This document shows, one piece after another, positions 27,446 through 49,385 of a stretch of 64,000 nucleotides of DNA (the stretch's first letter is position 1; the number at the start of each line of letters is the position of its first letter). The notes below the pieces were generated by a model, which ran no database searches, was not told the origin of the DNA, and was given only the letters and a program-made list of their open reading frames with translations. Both the position numbers and the translations under genes were made by a program. Source of the DNA: an uncultured Blautia sp. (GTDB taxonomy: Bacteria; Bacillota; Clostridia; Lachnospirales; Lachnospiraceae); the NCBI GenBank assembly GCA_963927715.1, contig CAWVBU010000002.1, forward strand, positions 515,550-579,549, read 5' to 3'.

Positions 27446-28729
27446 ATGGATATAAAAATGCTGGTGCCCTGTCTGTATCTGCTGAAGAAAAAAGCAGTGG
27501 CAGGCTGGGGACATAAAAATCTCTTCGGCAGCGGAGATGTGCTCGCGCTGACCGGATATTACAGGGATCACGGAGCGGATGAGCTTCTGGTCTTCGACTT
27601 TTCCTCCTCGGACGCGGAGCATGAGGAAGCCATCGGAATGCTCAAGGAGATCTGCGAGGAAGGAGAGATTCCGGTGATCGCGGCGGGGCACATCGACCGG
27701 GTGGAGGATGTGAAAAAACTGATTTACGCCGGATGCCAGAAGGTCGTTTTAAATTTTTCCAAGGAAAGCAATATCCAGATGCTGGAGGAAGTGTCGAAAC
27801 GGTTCGGAAAAGAAAAAATTCTGGTGAGTATCTCATCCATGGAGGAATTTCAGCCGCGGAAGGAACAGATTGAACAGTTCGCCGGGGGAATTCTGGCGCT
27901 GGACAACCTGGAAGACGCCATCGGGGCCAGTTCCTCCGTGCCGATTCTTCTGCACACGGACGAGCCGAAAGAAGAAGCGCTGATCCGGCTGCTGAAAAAA
28001 GAGAATGTACTGGGAGTGAGCGGAGCGTTTCCGAGCCGCACGGATGAAAGTCTGCTGACGTTAAAAAAACGCTGCCGTCAGGAGAACGTTCCGGTGAATA
28101 CTTTCGAGAGCCGGATTCCCTGGTCTCAGTTTAAGTTAAACAGCGACGGGATGGTTCCTGTGATTGTCCAGGACTACAAAACAGACGAGGTGCTGATGCT
28201 TGCCTATATGAATGAGGAGGCTTACGAGACCACTCTGCTCACCGGCAAGATGACCTACTGGAGCCGCAGCCGGAAGGAACTGTGGGTGAAGGGACTGACT
28301 TCCGGTCATTTTCAGTATGTGAAATCCCTCACTCTGGACTGTGACAACGATACCATTCTGGCGAAGGTGGCTCAGGTGGGAGCTGCCTGCCACACAGGAA
28401 ACCGGACCTGTTTTTTCCAGGAACTGGCGAGAAAAGAGTACGACGACACCAACCCCCTGCGGGTGTTTCAGAATGTCTATGATGTGATTGTGGACCGGAA
28501 AGAACATCCAAAGGAAGGATCCTACACCAATTATCTCTTTGACAAGGGAATCGACAAGATTCTCAAGAAAGTGGGAGAGGAGTGCACGGAGATTGTGATC
28601 GCCGCCAAGAACCCGGATAAGGAAGAGATCAAGTATGAGATCTCGGATTTTCTCTACCATGTTATGGTGCTGATGGTGGAAAAAGGCGTGACCTGGGAGG
28701 AGATTACCCGGGAACTGGCGAAACGATAA
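27446..28729 (+). CDS. hisIE: HisIE (PR-AMP cyclohydrolase/PR-ATP pyrophosphatase) with N-terminal degenerate HisF/HisA-like domain
   Basis: C-half [52 protein letters not shown]; N-half [30 protein letters not shown]. Confidence 0.9.
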
Positions 28730-28854: not shown

Positions 28855-28883
28855 TTGACAAAAAACAGGAGACCTCTTATAAT
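28855..28883 (+). promoter_or_regulatory. Consensus sigmaA promoter of marR-MATE operon
   Basis: TTGACA-17 nt-TATAAT. Confidence 0.88.
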
Positions 28884-28910: not shown

Positions 28911-28982
28911 ATATAGAAGCGGCGGATGCTGCGAGATAAGAAAAAGAACGAGAGAAATATGAGAAGACAGGAGATTTTCATT

Positions 28983-29432
28983 ATGAATTCCAATCAGATT
29001 TTGCTGGGAGAACTCAATGCTGCAGTGAGCCAGTTCCGCGGGGTCTACGCTGCCTGGGCAAGAGAGAAAAAAATTCCCTACCATGAGCTTTTGGTGCTCT
29101 ACCGACTCTGGGAGGCGGGACAATGTTCCCAAAAGGAAATCTGTGATCTGTATCTGCTTCCCAAGCAGACGGTCCACAACATTATTCTACGATATCGAAA
29201 ACAGGGATATCTGGAGATGCTCTCTTCCCTGTCCCCGGGCCGTGAGAAAAGATTCCGGTTCACGCCCTCCGGCAGGAACTATGCAGCGAAGATTATGGAG
29301 CCATTGTCGAAGAAAGAGGAAGAAGTGATTCAGGAACTGGGGGAGGAAGCGGTGCGGAGCATGGCGAATCTGACCCGACGGTTCGGAGAACTTCTGCAGG
29401 AAAAACTTCCAACGGGAGGAGAGGAACTATGA
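28983..29432 (+). CDS. MarR family transcriptional regulator
   Basis: wHTH pattern SQKEICDLYLLPKQTVHNII...REKRFRFTPSG; ATG 28983 with AGGAG. Confidence 0.88.
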   Translation: MNSNQILLGELNAAVSQFRGVYAAWAREKKIPYHELLVLYRLWEAGQCSQKEICDLYLLPKQTVHNIILRYRKQGYLEMLSSLSPGREKRFRFTPSGRNYAAKIMEPLSKKEEEVIQELGEEAVRSMANLTRRFGELLQEKLPTGGEEL

Positions 29433-31114
29433 GCGCGGCGCGGACAGATCTCTTCGATTCCGACAACATCTGGAAGATTCTTCTGCGCATCGCCCCGCCG
29501 GTGATGCTGGCTCAGCTGATTCAGTCCATGTATAACATTGTGGACAGTTATTTCGTGGGACAATATTCCGGGGAAGGCCTGACGGCGCTGTCGGTGATCT
29601 ACCCCATCCAGCTGATCGTCACGGCGATTGCCGTAGGAACCGGCGTGGGCGTCAATACCCTGATGTCCAGATTTTACGGGTTCGGGAGAAAAAAGAAAGC
29701 GGACAAGGCCGCAGGAACCGGGACGGCTCTCGCAGTGATCAGCTGGATGGTTTTTGCTCTGATCAGTGTTTTGATCATGAGGCCCTTTGCCGTGGCTTCC
29801 TCAGAATCACCGGTGGTGGTGGAGTACACGGTGCTTTACGGGACAATTGTCTGTGTGGGAAGCCTGGGCGTTTTTCTGGAGAGTACCTGGAGTAAGGTAC
29901 ACCAGGCCGGAGGAAACATGCGCCTCCCCATGATCGCGCAGATTTCAGGCGCCGCCATGAATATCGTTTTGGATCCGATCCTGATTTTCGGAGCAGGACC
30001 GGTTCCAGAGCTGGGCGTTGCGGGAGCAGCCATTGCCACCGTTGTCGGCCAGTTTCTGGCGGCGGCAATCACCTCCACCGGATTCCGGCGTCCGCCGAAA
30101 ATGCGGGAGATCGCTCCTTATGCCAGGAGAATCTATCAGCTGGGATATCCGTCTATTTTGATGCAGATGTTGTTTACGGTGTATATTATGGCGTTGAATC
30201 TGATCCTTGCCGGATTTTCTGACGATGCGGTGACCGTGCTTGGTCTGTATTATAAAGTGCAGTCCTTTTTCTTTATTCCGCTGGCGGGATTGCAGACCTG
30301 TATCGTTCCGCTTTTAAGCTATACCTATGCGAAGAATTTTTACAGGCGGTGCCGGCATATCGTACGGAACTGTATTTTGCTGGCCATGAGCCTGATGGTG
30401 GTGGGAGTTGCCTGCTTTGAGTTGATTCCGGAATATTTGCTGCGGATTTTCAGTTCAGATCCGGAGGTGCTGCGGATTGGCGTTCATGCCTTCCGTATCG
30501 TCGGAATCAGTTTTTTTCCCGCGGTACTTTCCCTGATCTTTCCGGTGTTTTTCCAGGCGATCGGAGCGGCGCTGCCCAGTGTGATTCTGTCTCTGACCCG
30601 GCAGATTTTCTGTCTGATTCCCATTTTCTGGCTGTTTTCCAGAATTGGTCTGGGTTATACCTGGATCGCCTTTCCGGCTGCGGAAATGATCACCGGCGGC
30701 CTGGGCCTGTGTTTTTATCTGCGGCGGATCCATATGTGGGAAAAATACCGGGGAAAAGAAACGATAGCGAAAGAAAAGAAAGGAGTTTCTACTATGAAAA
30801 TGATCACGGCGATTGTCAGCAGAAAAGACGCGGGAGATGTCTGCGCGGCGCTCACGGAGGCTGGATATTATTTCACCAGGATTGCTTCCTCCGGCGGATT
30901 TCTCACCGCCGGCAATACAACGCTTCTGATGGGAACAGAGGATTCCCGTGTCCGGGATGCCATTGAAGTGATCCGGCAGCATTGCTCCAGGCGGGTGGAG
31001 AAGATTTCTTCGCCCATACAGCTGGCGACCCCGTCCAACGCGGCTCCCACGGAGGTAACGGTGGGAGGAGCCATTGTGTTTGTCTCAGACGTGAGCCATT
31101 ACGAGAAACTTTGA
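29429..31114 (+). CDS. MATE efflux transporter in frame with C-terminal DarA/PstA (PII-like c-di-AMP receptor) domain
   Basis: MATE: IQSMYNIVDSYFVGQY, NIVLDPILIFG..PELGVAGAAIAT; C-terminal 106 aa from ATG 30794: MKMITAIV..TRIASSGGFLTAGNTTLLMG..EVTVGGAIVFV. Confidence 0.85.
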   Translation: MSAARTDLFDSDNIWKILLRIAPPVMLAQLIQSMYNIVDSYFVGQYSGEGLTALSVIYPIQLIVTAIAVGTGVGVNTLMSRFYGFGRKKKADKAAGTGTALAVISWMVFALISVLIMRPFAVASSESPVVVEYTVLYGTIVCVGSLGVFLESTWSKVHQAGGNMRLPMIAQISGAAMNIVLDPILIFGAGPVPELGVAGAAIATVVGQFLAAAITSTGFRRPPKMREIAPYARRIYQLGYPSILMQMLFTVYIMALNLILAGFSDDAVTVLGLYYKVQSFFFIPLAGLQTCIVPLLSYTYAKNFYRRCRHIVRNCILLAMSLMVVGVACFELIPEYLLRIFSSDPEVLRIGVHAFRIVGISFFPAVLSLIFPVFFQAIGAALPSVILSLTRQIFCLIPIFWLFSRIGLGYTWIAFPAAEMITGGLGLCFYLRRIHMWEKYRGKETIAKEKKGVSTMKMITAIVSRKDAGDVCAALTEAGYYFTRIASSGGFLTAGNTTLLMGTEDSRVRDAIEVIRQHCSRRVEKISSPIQLATPSNAAPTEVTVGGAIVFVSDVSHYEKL

Positions 31115-31192: not shown

Positions 31193-32710
31193 ATGATTTT
31201 GCCAAGACAAGAGACGAACTGGGGCTATATTGACTGGCTGGAAGAAAATATGGACGAGGACAAAACCGCGCTGAATGTGGGGATTGTGTCGATTGCGCCC
31301 CACGCCCATATGACGCCCCACATTCATTTCACCGAGCAGGTGCTCTACACCCTGCAGGGAACCGGCTACAGTCTGGTCAATGGAAAGAAAATCGATATGT
31401 CCCAGCCCAATGTGACCCTCCACTGGGAAGCGGGCGTGATTCATGAGATGTATAACGAAGGGGAGGACGAGTTCAAACACCTGATGGTTTCCTGCCCGGA
31501 TATTATGTCCTTTGATTCTCTGGACGCGGACAGCGCTGCTTCGTGTAAACTGAGCGAGGAGGAGAGGGAGGAGTATCTTCGCGCGGCGATCGCCGGGACC
31601 TGTGAACAGTTTCTGGATACGCTGCATTATTCCTATGTGATTTTCAACGCGGTGGGGAGACCGCTGAAGAGGACCCGGATTTTTCCGATTTTCTGCTGTG
31701 AAAACTGTCTGGAGGAAATTTCCGCCAATGTGGCGCCCTGTATGTGCCGCTATATCCGGTGCCCGTTTTATGAGGAGATGAGTTTCGAATGCTCCCATGG
31801 GGTGACGGTGTTCTGTACTCCGATTGTCTTCCGCGGAAACTTTCTGGGCTATATCCAGGGCGGTTATGTCCACATGCACAACGTCTCCGAGGAAGGGGTC
31901 TATGTTATGCCGAAGAGCTCCATCCAGGGAGCGAAGATTCTGCTGCGCCAGATGGTCAAAGCCATGACGGATTACTGCGAAGTCTATCAGTTCAAAAAAG
32001 AGCTGACCCGGCAGGAGACGGAGCTGGAAGACAACCAGCAGTATCAGGAAGTTCTCATCGCCAATCTGCAGAACGCGGAACATACCATGACCGATTTGAA
32101 GATCAATAACCATTTCCTGTTCAATACGCTGAATCAGATGGCCTCCATGGCGCTGGGCGGTGGGATGATTTCCCTGTACCAGTCCATCCTGGATCTGTCC
32201 CGGCTGTTTTCCAGCGCGCTGCGAAACAACAGCAGCATGGTGCCGCTGTCCAGGGAACTGGAATATCTGCATTCTTATCTGAAACTTCAGAAACTGCGGT
32301 ATGGGGAGAGCCTGCATCTGGATTTTCGCGTGGAAGCGGATCTGGATCTGGATCACTGGATGGTTCCCTTTAATTTTCTGATGCCGGTGGCAGAGAACGC
32401 GTTCGTACATGGATTCTCGCAGGAAGACGAGAAGTGGTTTTCCCTGGCCATCGCGCATAAGGAGGAAAAGCTGTTGTTTACGATGGAAAACAGCGGGGTG
32501 TGCGTGGGAGAGGAAGACTGCGCGGAGATTATGCGCAAGATGAAAGACAGCGCGGCCCACGGCCTTTCTATGATTTACTGGAAACTGCACGCGGTTTACG
32601 GAGACCGTTTTTCCATGGAGTTTTTCCCCGGCGCCCAGAGCGGAGTGAAAGTCCGTATCAGTCTTCCCGCAGAAGATCAGATTTCTGACAGAAAGAAGGT
32701 GGAAGCATGA
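31193..32710 (+). CDS. Soluble sensor histidine kinase: cupin + PocR-like + LytS-type kinase + HATPase
   Basis: Cupin PHIHFTEQ...HWEAGVIHEM; Cys-rich PocR-like FECSHG..FCTPIVFRGNFLGYIQGG; INNHFLFNTLN; ENAFVHG; no TM stretch. Confidence 0.8.
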   Translation: MILPRQETNWGYIDWLEENMDEDKTALNVGIVSIAPHAHMTPHIHFTEQVLYTLQGTGYSLVNGKKIDMSQPNVTLHWEAGVIHEMYNEGEDEFKHLMVSCPDIMSFDSLDADSAASCKLSEEEREEYLRAAIAGTCEQFLDTLHYSYVIFNAVGRPLKRTRIFPIFCCENCLEEISANVAPCMCRYIRCPFYEEMSFECSHGVTVFCTPIVFRGNFLGYIQGGYVHMHNVSEEGVYVMPKSSIQGAKILLRQMVKAMTDYCEVYQFKKELTRQETELEDNQQYQEVLIANLQNAEHTMTDLKINNHFLFNTLNQMASMALGGGMISLYQSILDLSRLFSSALRNNSSMVPLSRELEYLHSYLKLQKLRYGESLHLDFRVEADLDLDHWMVPFNFLMPVAENAFVHGFSQEDEKWFSLAIAHKEEKLLFTMENSGVCVGEEDCAEIMRKMKDSAAHGLSMIYWKLHAVYGDRFSMEFFPGAQSGVKVRISLPAEDQISDRKKVEA

Positions 32711-33399
32711 TCCGGGCGGTAATCTGTGACGATGAGATGGCCAGTCATTCCATTATCCGGTATCTCATCGAAAACGAAGGGCTTCCCATAGAAATCGTGG
32801 GAACCGCAGTCAACGGCCAGAGCAGTCTGGAACTGATCCAGAGAGAGCAGCCGGATCTTGCGTTTCTGGATATCCAGATGCCGAAGCTGGACGGTTTCGA
32901 AGTTCTGCAGGAACTGAGAGAAAGCAAGACGAAAGTGATTTTTATCACAGTGTACAACACCTTTGCTTACGCGCAGAAAGCGCTCCGCCTGGGAGCCTGT
33001 GACATCATCGAAAAGCCCATTGATGTGACGCAGCTGAAGGAGGCGATTATCCGTGCCATCGGATGGAATTTCACGGAAAATGAGACTCTGAACCGGGCTT
33101 TGCAGTATATTTACCAGCATTATTCGGAGACCATCACCATGAATGAGCTGGCAGAAAAGGCCTGCTGCACCCCCAGCCATCTGTCCCATCTGTTCCGGCA
33201 GCATTTTGATCTGTCGCCGCTTTCTTATATTCATAAGACCAGAATCGCCAGGGCTGCCCAGCTTCTGCGGGACGGCGCGAGTGTTCAGGACGCGGCGTGG
33301 CAGACCGGATACACCAGTATGAACCATTTCTATAAATATTTTAAACTCTATCAGGGAGTGACTCCCGCAGCGTACCGCCGCGCCCGCGGAGGAGAGTAG
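32707..33399 (+). CDS. Response regulator, REC + AraC HTH
   Basis: VICDDE, FLDIQMP, IEKPID; C-terminal LSHLFRQ..IARAAQLL..GYTSMNHFYKYFK..GVTPAAYR. Confidence 0.92.
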   Translation: MIRAVICDDEMASHSIIRYLIENEGLPIEIVGTAVNGQSSLELIQREQPDLAFLDIQMPKLDGFEVLQELRESKTKVIFITVYNTFAYAQKALRLGACDIIEKPIDVTQLKEAIIRAIGWNFTENETLNRALQYIYQHYSETITMNELAEKACCTPSHLSHLFRQHFDLSPLSYIHKTRIARAAQLLRDGASVQDAAWQTGYTSMNHFYKYFKLYQGVTPAAYRRARGGE

Positions 33400-47987: not shown

Positions 47988-49385
47988 TTGAAAATGGCAA
48001 AAACATCATCGGAAGTGCGAATGACGGAGGGCCCCATCTGGAAGAGTCTGATCGCCTTCGCGGTTCCGCTGTTCTGGGGCAATCTGTTTCAGCAGCTGTA
48101 TAACACGGCGGATTCTCTGATCGTGGGGAATTTTCTGGGAAATCACGCGCTGGCGGCGGTCAGTTCCTCCGGGAATCTGATTTTTCTTCTGGTGGGATTT
48201 TTTAATGGAATTTCCATCGGCGCCGGTGTGGTGACGGGAAAATATTTCGGGGCGGGGGATCGCGAGAATTTAAAGAAATCCATTCATACCACCATCCTGT
48301 TCGGGGTGGCCTGCGGAATTTTCCTGACGGTGGCGGGGATTGTGGCAGCTCCGAAGATCCTGGTTCTCATGGGGACGCCCAGGGAGGTTCTTCCCCAGTC
48401 CCTGGAGTATTTCCAGGTGTATTTCGCGGGATCTCTGGCCTTTGTCTGTTATAACTTTTTTGTGGGAATTCTGCAGGCCATGGGAGACAGCCGGCATCCG
48501 CTTTATTTTCTGATTGTCTCTTCGATGACTAATATCGTGCTGGATCTGCTGTTTGTGGGCGGATTCGGCCTGGGCGTATGGTCGGCGGCTTTTGCCACCA
48601 TCCTGTCTCAGTTCCTGAGCGCGTTTCTGTGCCTTTGGCAGCTGATGAAAGGAAACGGTGTGTTCCGGCTCCGGATGGGAGAAATCCGGGGAGATCCGGG
48701 CATGCTTCGGCAGATTGTGGTGAACGGCGTGCCGGCGGGGGTACAGAATTCCATTATTTCTGTGGCGAATGTGTTTGTACAGTCCAACATCAATGCTTTT
48801 GGCGCCACGGCTGTGGCAGGCTGCGGTTCCTATTCCAAGATTGAAGGGTTCGGTTTTCTTCCGGTCACCTGTTTTGCCCTGGCCCTTACCACGTTTACCA
48901 GTCAGAATCTGGGCGCCAGAAAGTATGACCGGGCCAGAAAAGGCGCGGTGGTGGGCGCGGTCTGTTCCCTCACCGTCGCGGAAGTTCTGGCTCTTTGCAT
49001 CAATCTGTTCTCGCCGTGGCTGATCGGCGCTTTCGGAGGCGGCCAGGAGGCGGTCGGCTATGGGGTTGCCTGGGCCAGGACGGTTACCTGGTTCTACTTT
49101 TTGCTGGCGTTTTCCCACTGTATGGCCGGAATTCTCCGGGGAGCAGGCAGATCGGTGGTTCCCATGTTTGTCATGATGGTCTGCTGGTGCGTGATCCGGG
49201 TCGGTTACATATCGGTGATTGTGAAAGTGATTCCGGATATCCGGGTTATTTTCTGGGCCTATCCGCTGACCTGGTTCTTAAGCTCCGCGGTATTTCTGGT
49301 CTGCTTCCTGAAAACAGACTGGATTCACGGTCTGGAAAAACAGAAAAATAGAACAGAAGTGTTGCCGAAGGGTGCAGGGGAGTGA
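47988..49385 (+). CDS. MATE family efflux transporter
   Basis: MTEGPIWK, LFQQLYNTADSLIVGNFLG, GDSRHPL, NIVLDLLFV, SQNLGA. Confidence 0.93.
   Translation: MKMAKTSSEVRMTEGPIWKSLIAFAVPLFWGNLFQQLYNTADSLIVGNFLGNHALAAVSSSGNLIFLLVGFFNGISIGAGVVTGKYFGAGDRENLKKSIHTTILFGVACGIFLTVAGIVAAPKILVLMGTPREVLPQSLEYFQVYFAGSLAFVCYNFFVGILQAMGDSRHPLYFLIVSSMTNIVLDLLFVGGFGLGVWSAAFATILSQFLSAFLCLWQLMKGNGVFRLRMGEIRGDPGMLRQIVVNGVPAGVQNSIISVANVFVQSNINAFGATAVAGCGSYSKIEGFGFLPVTCFALALTTFTSQNLGARKYDRARKGAVVGAVCSLTVAEVLALCINLFSPWLIGAFGGGQEAVGYGVAWARTVTWFYFLLAFSHCMAGILRGAGRSVVPMFVMMVCWCVIRVGYISVIVKVIPDIRVIFWAYPLTWFLSSAVFLVCFLKTDWIHGLEKQKNRTEVLPKGAGE

Follow-up and report, generated by a model that had tools for sequence, protein, structure and literature searches.

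We analyzed a 64,000-nt stretch of DNA from an uncultured Blautia sp. (contig CAWVBU010000002.1; hereafter the window, to which all coordinates and strands refer) and found that a gene at 29429–31114 (+) encodes a multidrug and toxic compound extrusion (MATE) transporter fused through a linker to a DarA/PstA-like domain, a PII-like receptor type for cyclic di-AMP (c-di-AMP). The gene is a single uninterrupted open reading frame (ORF) of 561 amino acids that starts with ATG, and its architecture is supported by Pfam and NCBIfam matches, orthologue clusters and independent assemblies. We propose, with a probability of about 60%, that this gene provides both a MATE transporter with a tethered DarA domain and, from an internal start codon, free DarA subunits, and that the two would co-assemble as a trimeric c-di-AMP sensor. 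An earlier note on this DNA, made from the sequence alone, had described a MATE and a PII-like domain in one frame with the motifs GGFL, GNTT and GGAIVFV; we found the gene as described, with both Pfam families and all three motifs (GGFL at nt 30893–30904).

Among 5.8 billion proteins searched, orthologues of the fusion form more than 100 protein clusters that combine PF01554 with PF06153, at 58–100% identity, and nearly all of them are 557–566 amino acids long with both domains. The carriers are abundant gut Clostridia and include Candidatus Blautia intestinigallinarum (88%) and many Oscillospiraceae (Oscillibacter, Pseudoflavonifractor capillosus An827, Flintibacter porci, Lawsonibacter and Dysosmobacter) from the chicken and human gut; two of the records, Flintibacter porci P01025 and Pseudoflavonifractor capillosus An827, are from named cultured strains. 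At the DNA level, we compared 67 loci drawn from GTDB genomes, metagenomes and single look-ups, which represent 25 lineages once redundancy is removed, and the linkers differ widely among these. The earlier note had held that an orthologue with a stop before 30794 would speak against the fusion; instead, the frame is continuous from the MATE into the DarA domain in these 67 loci. Occasional broken copies were also seen, with a TGA in transmembrane helix 12 (L122), a CAG to TAG change (L125) or frameshifts (L021 and L087).

The membrane domain (29429–30733 (+), residues 1 to ~435) is a MATE of the DinF/MepA type with 12 transmembrane helices. The Pfam MatE family matches it in two stretches (E 1e-43), and TIGR00797 (matE) scores 167.1 bits against an NCBIfam cutoff of 147.4, in keeping with a MATE of the DinF subfamily (MOP superfamily), with the more specific NCBIfam equivalogs SolL, FepA, MepA and NorM all far below their cutoffs. 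Its best PDB sequence match is DinF-BH (5c6o/4lz6, E 4e-41), with the YN[IV]VD motif of the first transmembrane helix aligned. Asp39 in this helix (GAC, 29543–29545) aligns with D40 in the YNVVD of DinF-BH and is invariant in 55 fusion proteins (alignment A2). We take it that this acidic residue (D40 of DinF-BH, D41 of PfMATE) serves H+/substrate coupling. The AlphaFold2 model has a mean predicted local distance difference test score of 84, mostly above 85 across the membrane domain, and shows the V-shaped, 12-helix MATE fold; a Foldseek search with this model returned PfMATE, VcmN and DinF-BH with target-normalized TM-scores of 0.83–0.89. The solved MATE chains align over at most ~460 columns, indicating that none of them carries such a C-terminal regulatory domain.

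The cytoplasmic linker (30734–30793 (+), residues ~436–455, MWEKYRGKETIAKEKKGVST) was delimited from orthologue alignments and the AlphaFold2 model, in which a basic extension of the twelfth transmembrane helix reaches to about residue 449 and is followed by ~6 disordered or low-confidence residues. Apart from W437, the amino acids of the linker are hypervariable and essentially unalignable between lineages.

The C-terminal domain (30794–31114 (+), residues 456–561) consists of 106 amino acids followed by the stop codon. CdAMP_rec (PF06153) matches residues 456–560 with an E value of 5e-28 and 97.9 bits against a cutoff of 27, covering model positions 1–108 of 109. Over its full length, the domain can be aligned with PstA from L. 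monocytogenes (4rww, E 1.7e-20) and from S. aureus (4d3g/4wk1) and with DarA from B. subtilis (4rle), and the E values of its PDB matches span 1.7e-20 to 3e-17. In the AlphaFold2 monomer, residues 456–555 form a ferredoxin-like beta-alpha-beta-beta-alpha-beta fold. The T-loop (488–492) and the B-loop (527–540) are of low confidence in this model, which is what one would expect when a PII-like subunit is modelled apart from the rest of its trimer.

In L. monocytogenes PstA (LmPstA), c-di-AMP is contacted by T28, the T-loop residues 34-GGFL-37 and G47 from one subunit, and by N41, a B-loop Gly, T97 and F99 from the neighboring subunit (Choi et al., PMC4475381). R26 is an additional contact in S. 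aureus PstA (SaPstA) and DarA and is a Gly in LmPstA, which still binds c-di-AMP, and the N41A substitution in LmPstA weakens binding by about 100-fold or more (PMC4475381). In the window gene, T28 corresponds to residue 483 and N41 is encoded by AAT at 30914–30916. When 34 diverse fusion domains were aligned (alignment A1), T28, G34, G35, L37, the B-loop GG (G91 and G92) and F96, which is equivalent to F99, were invariant, and F36, N41 and G47 were conserved at 90% or more; the exceptions among the contact positions are R26 to Y, T97 to T or I (Ile in the window) and H108 to K. The DarA signatures that the earlier note had read from the motifs are thus borne out by the ligand contacts. Contact residues from both sides of the interface are kept among the 34 fusions, implying at least two domains per site, and from the conservation of both faces we expect the domain to work as an oligomer whose ligand is c-di-AMP or a closely similar molecule.

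At the boundary between the linker and this domain lies a putative translation start. A Shine-Dalgarno (SD) sequence, GAAAGGAG, lies at 30778–30785 (+), and the ATG at 30794–30796 (+) encodes Met456, the first residue of the domain, which is Met in 34/34 of the diverse fusions aligned. The earlier note had pointed to the AAGGAG before this ATG, which lies at 30780–30785, 8 nt upstream, and had suggested that free DarA subunits made from it could complete the trimer; the element is indeed conserved across lineages at the RNA level. Its GGAG core, at 30782–30785 in the window, is found 9–15 nt upstream of the internal start in 23 of the 25 non-redundant lineages, where it is encoded as K-G-x, K-E-A, R-S, R-R or G-G, that is, in different codon frames at the same distance. 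The commonest coding, in most lineages, is AAA GGA Gnn (K-G-x), and the variants include AAG AAG GAG GCC (L088), AAG AGG AGT (L092), AAT AGG AGT (L093), CAG AGG AGA (L116), GAA AGG AGC (L111), CAT GGA GGC (L112) and CAA GGA GAT (L053). Locus L112 (P0057) has GTG in place of the internal ATG, with GGAGG upstream.

The duplex energy with the anti-SD sequence is −8.5 kcal/mol in the window gene and averages −8.1 kcal/mol over the 25 lineages, versus a background of −2.7 kcal/mol over every position in these genes; it is −6.6 kcal/mol or lower in 23 of the 25, within the top 0.5–10% of positions of the respective gene. Along the linker, the information content between −36 and −16 mostly stays below ~0.5 bit (isolated values of 0.6–1.0), and it peaks within −15 to −9, with 1.1–1.5 bit at −14, −12 and −11. 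When the order of the 18 linker codons was shuffled, the observed SD strength had a median p of 0.037, and 23 of 24 lineages were below 0.2. Sequence comparison thus shows that the orthologues retain, within the gene, a ribosome-binding site and a start codon where the DarA domain begins, as in genes of the MthK type, pointing to a putative separate product of 106 amino acids. The case for the internal start draws on frame-independence, position and the number of lineages, and on no single sequence.

A single lineage, L113 (1844–3529; P0088 and P0107), has lost both the internal ATG and the SD sequence: it is the only one with a CTG (P0088) and has no purine-rich stretch upstream. Its domain also shows GGFL to GAFL, N41 to S and VGGA to VSGA. 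The start site and the ligand site therefore appear, from the comparison of these sequences, to have decayed together in L113.

The strongest support for a functional internal start comes, in our view, from a free-standing copy of the domain. In loci L118–L121 (4001–4321; 24 contigs from several samples), a gene for 106 amino acids is flanked by a divergent peptidase M14 gene on one side and a GATase gene on the other, and it shares 95% identity with the DarA domain of an Oscillibacter-type fusion. Its homology to the fusion extends from 36 nt before the ATG, which includes the last dozen linker codons and the SD sequence, to the stop codon. The free copy is nested within the fused clade in a neighbor-joining tree, and in comparison with the fused copy in L004, 26 of its codons differ synonymously and 4 non-synonymously, indicating that it has been under purifying selection. 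With this same SD sequence and ATG, the 3' cistron is thus viable as a gene of its own. A second free-standing case seems to be present in L110 (842–1165), where a linker remnant, EKKGAIA, precedes the domain with no MATE upstream. In addition, the nonsense-split variants L122 (8 contigs) and L125 retain intact DarA ORFs.

We also considered whether 106-amino acid proteins that are 70–100% identical to the domain represent the ancestral free DarA of these taxa, and rejected this. P0122 and P0135 go back to nonsense variants of the fusion (one CAG to TAG change and a TGA, respectively), P0122 being otherwise made up of contig-edge fragments, and P0126 is a derived free-standing copy within the fused clade.

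In the mechanism that we propose, one gene would yield the 561-amino acid transporter with its tethered sensor and a free 106-amino acid DarA. Since the c-di-AMP site spans two subunits of the trimer and both sets of residues are conserved, the tethered domain would most likely complete a canonical trimer with free subunits, for example one tethered and two free. The trimer would sit beneath the cytoplasmic face of the MATE with the c-di-AMP sites at the subunit interfaces, and c-di-AMP, as it binds or leaves, would bring the T- and B-loops into another arrangement and thereby switch transport on or off. It has been reported that apo-DarB is the target-binding form and that apo-DarA/PstA is harmful when c-di-AMP is absent (PMC10636490 and a 2025 paper). 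We would therefore expect the apo trimer to be the acting form, which may engage the transporter, probably inhibiting it, until c-di-AMP releases it; the sign of this effect is a guess.

Several observations weigh against this proposal. MATE-only orthologues at 60–68% identity exist with no DarA within their flanks, indicating that the transporter works without the domain. MATEs are normally monomers, and the contact between the DarA domain and the transporter is a proposed one. The 106-amino acid product is a prediction from comparative sequence. When the last seven linker codons were recoded synonymously with each gene's own codon usage, the median p per lineage was 0.22; a Fisher combination of the 24 values, worked by hand, gives about 1e-4 only if the lineages are independent, and since they are phylogenetically related, this combined value overstates their independence. 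Purine-rich linkers of Lys, Arg, Glu and Gly give SD-like strings fairly easily, and L010 has just AAAGAG at this place. For the domain itself, the NCBIfam DarA equivalog NF058593 scores 97.7 bits with the full protein and 102.8 bits with the domain alone, below its cutoff of 140 bits, so that by the NCBI criterion the sequence is DarA-like and no equivalog. Position 26 is a nearly invariant Tyr where SaPstA and DarA have Arg26, and the B-loop is 3 residues shorter. We suspect from these two changes that the ligand specificity could differ.

The recoding result leaves room for the reading that only the full-length protein is made, that three fusions trimerize through their DarA domains so as to place a MATE trimer under one sensor, and that the SD sequence and ATG are either a relic from an ancestor in which an operon held the two genes separately or a site at which translation pauses. 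GlnK-AmtB and SbtB-SbtA provide a model for such an arrangement, as they act trimer on trimer (AmtB3-GlnK3 and SbtA3-SbtB3), and linkers rich in Lys, Arg, Glu and Gly produce chance SD-like strings appreciably often, with recoding p values around 0.2. However, a relic should decay within unalignable linkers, while the GGAG is kept at −9 to −15 across codon frames and Met1 is invariant. The 3' cistron is under purifying selection as a free gene with the same SD sequence and ATG, and the sole lineage that has lost both signals also has a degenerate ligand site. In addition, the solved MATEs are monomers, or dimers at most, as judged from the structure titles. We consider the homotrimer unlikely for these reasons.

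A different concern is that the domain kept the DarA fold with an altered or lost ligand, in which case it would recognize another nucleotide or serve merely as an oligomerization or structural module. The score below the equivalog cutoff, the replacement of Arg26 by Tyr and the shortened B-loop fit this view, as does the N41 to S change in the DarA-like partner at L022 described below, given that N41A cripples binding by LmPstA (PMC4475381). Within the fused clade, in contrast, there is little or no variation at T28, GGFL, N41, G47, the B-loop GG and F99. LmPstA binds c-di-AMP with a Gly at the place of Arg26 (PMC4475381), and an aromatic Tyr26 could stack on the adenine. We therefore regard a changed or lost ligand as quite improbable.

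The link between DarA and this MATE subfamily extends beyond the fusion. In L022 (5977–6330 and 6432–7808) and L023 (69–350 and 430–1764), the gene directly upstream of a MATE gene is a divergent DarA-like one, separate from it. The DarA-like protein is 35% identical to the fused domain, matches PF06153 with 68 bits and carries the N41 to S change, and the MATEs belong to the same subfamily, at 63% and 59% identity. From these loci, the link appears to have arisen or been kept in more than one gene arrangement. Furthermore, a profile-free scan of 1.84 billion representative proteins returned 1908 DarA-domain proteins, and among the best 150 of the 1908 the only architecture longer than ~320 amino acids is the MATE fusion. 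Taken together, the fusion, the upstream gene and this lone long architecture suggest that the DarA link is specific to this MATE clade.

These arrangements also bear on the idea that the MATE merely anchors or sequesters a DarA trimer whose target is another protein, such as a GlnR/GlnA-type complex. A 2026 preprint reports a PstA-GlnR-GlnA complex in S. aureus (PMC13484208), and it is established that GlnK is sequestered at the membrane by AmtB. The partners of DarA/PstA are otherwise described as unknown: a 2023 review treats partner and function as an open question (PMC10636490), and a 2025 paper still calls the PstA partners unknown. Against a generic anchor, three arrangements (the C-terminal fusion, the upstream gene of L022 and L023, and the nonsense-split variants) tie DarA to one MATE subfamily, and the standing of the fusion as the sole long architecture among those best 150 fits a functional partner better. 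The chance that the transporter is just an anchor is, in our estimate, slim.

The weakest alternative is an artefact in which a surplus base within the A/G runs of the linker has merged two separate genes, as the earlier note had cautioned; the out-of-frame TAG that it had mentioned is present (30765–30767, +1 frame) and the linker contains homopolymer runs, but contigs assembled independently from the public runs X1 and X5 match the window over 30400–31049/31062 (0 differences, 0 gaps), and 25 lineages with entirely different linkers have an uninterrupted ORF, which refutes the caveat and leaves an artefact practically no chance. Runs X2 and X12 likewise show no difference at the junction (the X12/X2 library is labelled as metagenomic RNA sequencing, a kind that is uncertain).

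Apart from the fusion, we observed that P0239, P0240, P0249 and about 40 more proteins of 206–260 amino acids contain two tandem CdAMP_rec domains (two Pfam stretches, 160–176 bits). A tandem PII-like receptor would also break simple three-fold symmetry. We know of no description of such tandem proteins.

In the literature on MATE proteins with c-di-AMP, DarA, PstA, PII-like domains or PF06153/DUF970/CdAMP_rec, we found no description of the fusion architecture, in line with the earlier note, which knew of no characterized case of a MATE gated by c-di-AMP. Campeotto et al. (2015) make no mention of fusions, and we found no published account of a transporter that bears a DarA-type domain, of a MATE with a regulatory domain, or of the combination with an internal start. 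Both Pfam matches are already precomputed for the fusion in public protein sets, yet the architecture is unremarked there. The conserved covalent fusion may thus name a physical partner class for DarA ahead of any experiment, which the neighbor arrangement in L022 and L023 reinforces, and it offers a compact, defined two-component system for the question of DarA function. If the proposal is true, MATE exporters would join the transporters controlled by c-di-AMP, so far K+/cation and osmolyte systems, and the fusion would be the first example of a ligand-gated MATE.

A more far-reaching reading, which we hold to be doubtful, takes the fusion as a Rosetta stone for the DarA partner, such that DarA/PstA proteins regulate MATE exporters in general through a heterotrimeric c-di-AMP gate. 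In its boldest version, the pump would export c-di-AMP or a c-di-AMP-linked osmolyte or cationic metabolite as its substrate, which would make it a relief valve that regulates itself, and the MATE pumps of other Firmicutes would be targets in trans of free-standing DarA.

The fusion gene is preceded by a gene for a MarR-family regulator (28926–29432 (+), longest ORF 168 amino acids; Pfam MarR_2/HTH_27). Judging from its orthologues, which have 147 amino acids, translation probably begins at the ATG near 28983. The TGA stop codon overlaps the ATG of the MATE (ATGA, 29429–29432), suggesting translational coupling. Upstream of the MarR-like gene, a consensus scan revealed a promoter-like TTGACA-17 nt-TATAAT at 28855–28883 (+), a match to 12/12 positions of the sigma-70 consensus, which would likely serve as the operon promoter. 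A MarR orthologue is directly upstream in L112, L117, L113 and L122 as well as in the MATE-only loci L018 and L019, and it overlaps the MATE start by 4 nt in at least L112 and L117 too. We considered the MarR-MATE operon as a universal feature and rejected this, as it is only partly conserved and most Oscillospiraceae loci have no MarR gene directly upstream. The overlap recalls, as we understand that system, mepRA with its MarR-type repressor MepR and the transporter MepA.

Around the fusion gene, a compositional scan gave no anomaly and hence no signal of horizontal transfer. A search for a second DarA within the window found none, and no c-di-AMP riboswitch was found near the fusion gene, the sole Rfam family above its gathering score in the window being a ZMP/ZTP riboswitch (RF01750, 46898–46983 (+), 59.9 bits). 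A second, distant MATE homologue at 48036–49100 (+) has 25% identity to the MATE half and no DarA domain. Directly 3' of the fusion gene lies a two-component pair (31193–32710 and 32707–33399 (+), with a 4-nt overlap), in which a sensor kinase with cupin/AraC-binding, PocR and His_kinase (PF06580) domains is joined by an AraC-type response regulator. The earlier note had also spoken of other indels in the window. One candidate is a 427-amino acid ORF at 27446–28729 (+), in which the first ~130 of 228 positions of the His_biosynth (HisA/HisF-type) barrel are joined to PRA-CH and PRA-PH (HisIE); this could be either an indel product or a genuine, unusual half-barrel fusion.

The individual elements of the proposal are already known separately, namely c-di-AMP domains in transporters, PII-type regulators of transporters, and the use of tethered plus free subunits in MthK. 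The domain shares its fold, length and ligand contacts with DarA (YaaQ) of B. subtilis and PstA of S. aureus and L. monocytogenes (4rle, 4d3h, 4wk1 and 4rww). While the known members are free-standing trimers of ~109 amino acids with no established partner, the domain here is attached to a 12-helix transporter, and it differs from them in the Tyr for Arg26, the B-loop and the sub-cutoff NCBIfam score noted above. The transporter half has the 12-helix MATE fold of the DinF/MepA-type exporters, represented by DinF-BH (B. halodurans BH2163), PfMATE and S. aureus MepA, and the motif of its first helix aligns with that of DinF-BH; the solved structures, DinF-BH and PfMATE among them, have no C-terminal regulatory domain.

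Transporters with built-in c-di-AMP domains include CpaA and KhtT/KtrA, with RCK_C, and OpuCA, with CBS (PMC10636490). The principle would be the same in that a c-di-AMP-binding domain is attached to, or is a subunit of, the transporter that it controls, and the fold differs, RCK_C or CBS versus PII-like, as does the transporter, K+/cation or osmolyte systems versus a MATE. In GlnK-AmtB and SbtB-SbtA, as proposed here, a nucleotide sensor of the PII superfamily is genetically linked to a membrane transporter and acts on it, and SbtB also binds c-di-AMP. These are separate proteins, however, which meet trimer on trimer through a long T-loop, and their transporters are not MATEs. In DarA/PstA, by comparison with GlnK and SbtB, the T-loop is short and contributes to ligand binding, and it is the B-loop that moves (PMC4475381 and the 2025 paper).

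The closest parallel to the proposed pair of products is MthK, in which a soluble RCK domain translated from an internal Met107 co-assembles with the tethered RCK into the regulatory ring (PMC9440719). In both cases, one gene would supply a tethered domain and the same domain in soluble form from an internal start. They differ in that the RCK is not PII-like, in ligand and cargo, and in geometry, with an octameric ring on a tetramer in MthK versus a presumed trimer on a monomeric transporter here; the second product of the fusion gene is read from comparative sequence alone. If true, the fusion would be a second, unrelated case of the MthK solution to a symmetry mismatch, with tethered and free subunits supplied by one gene.

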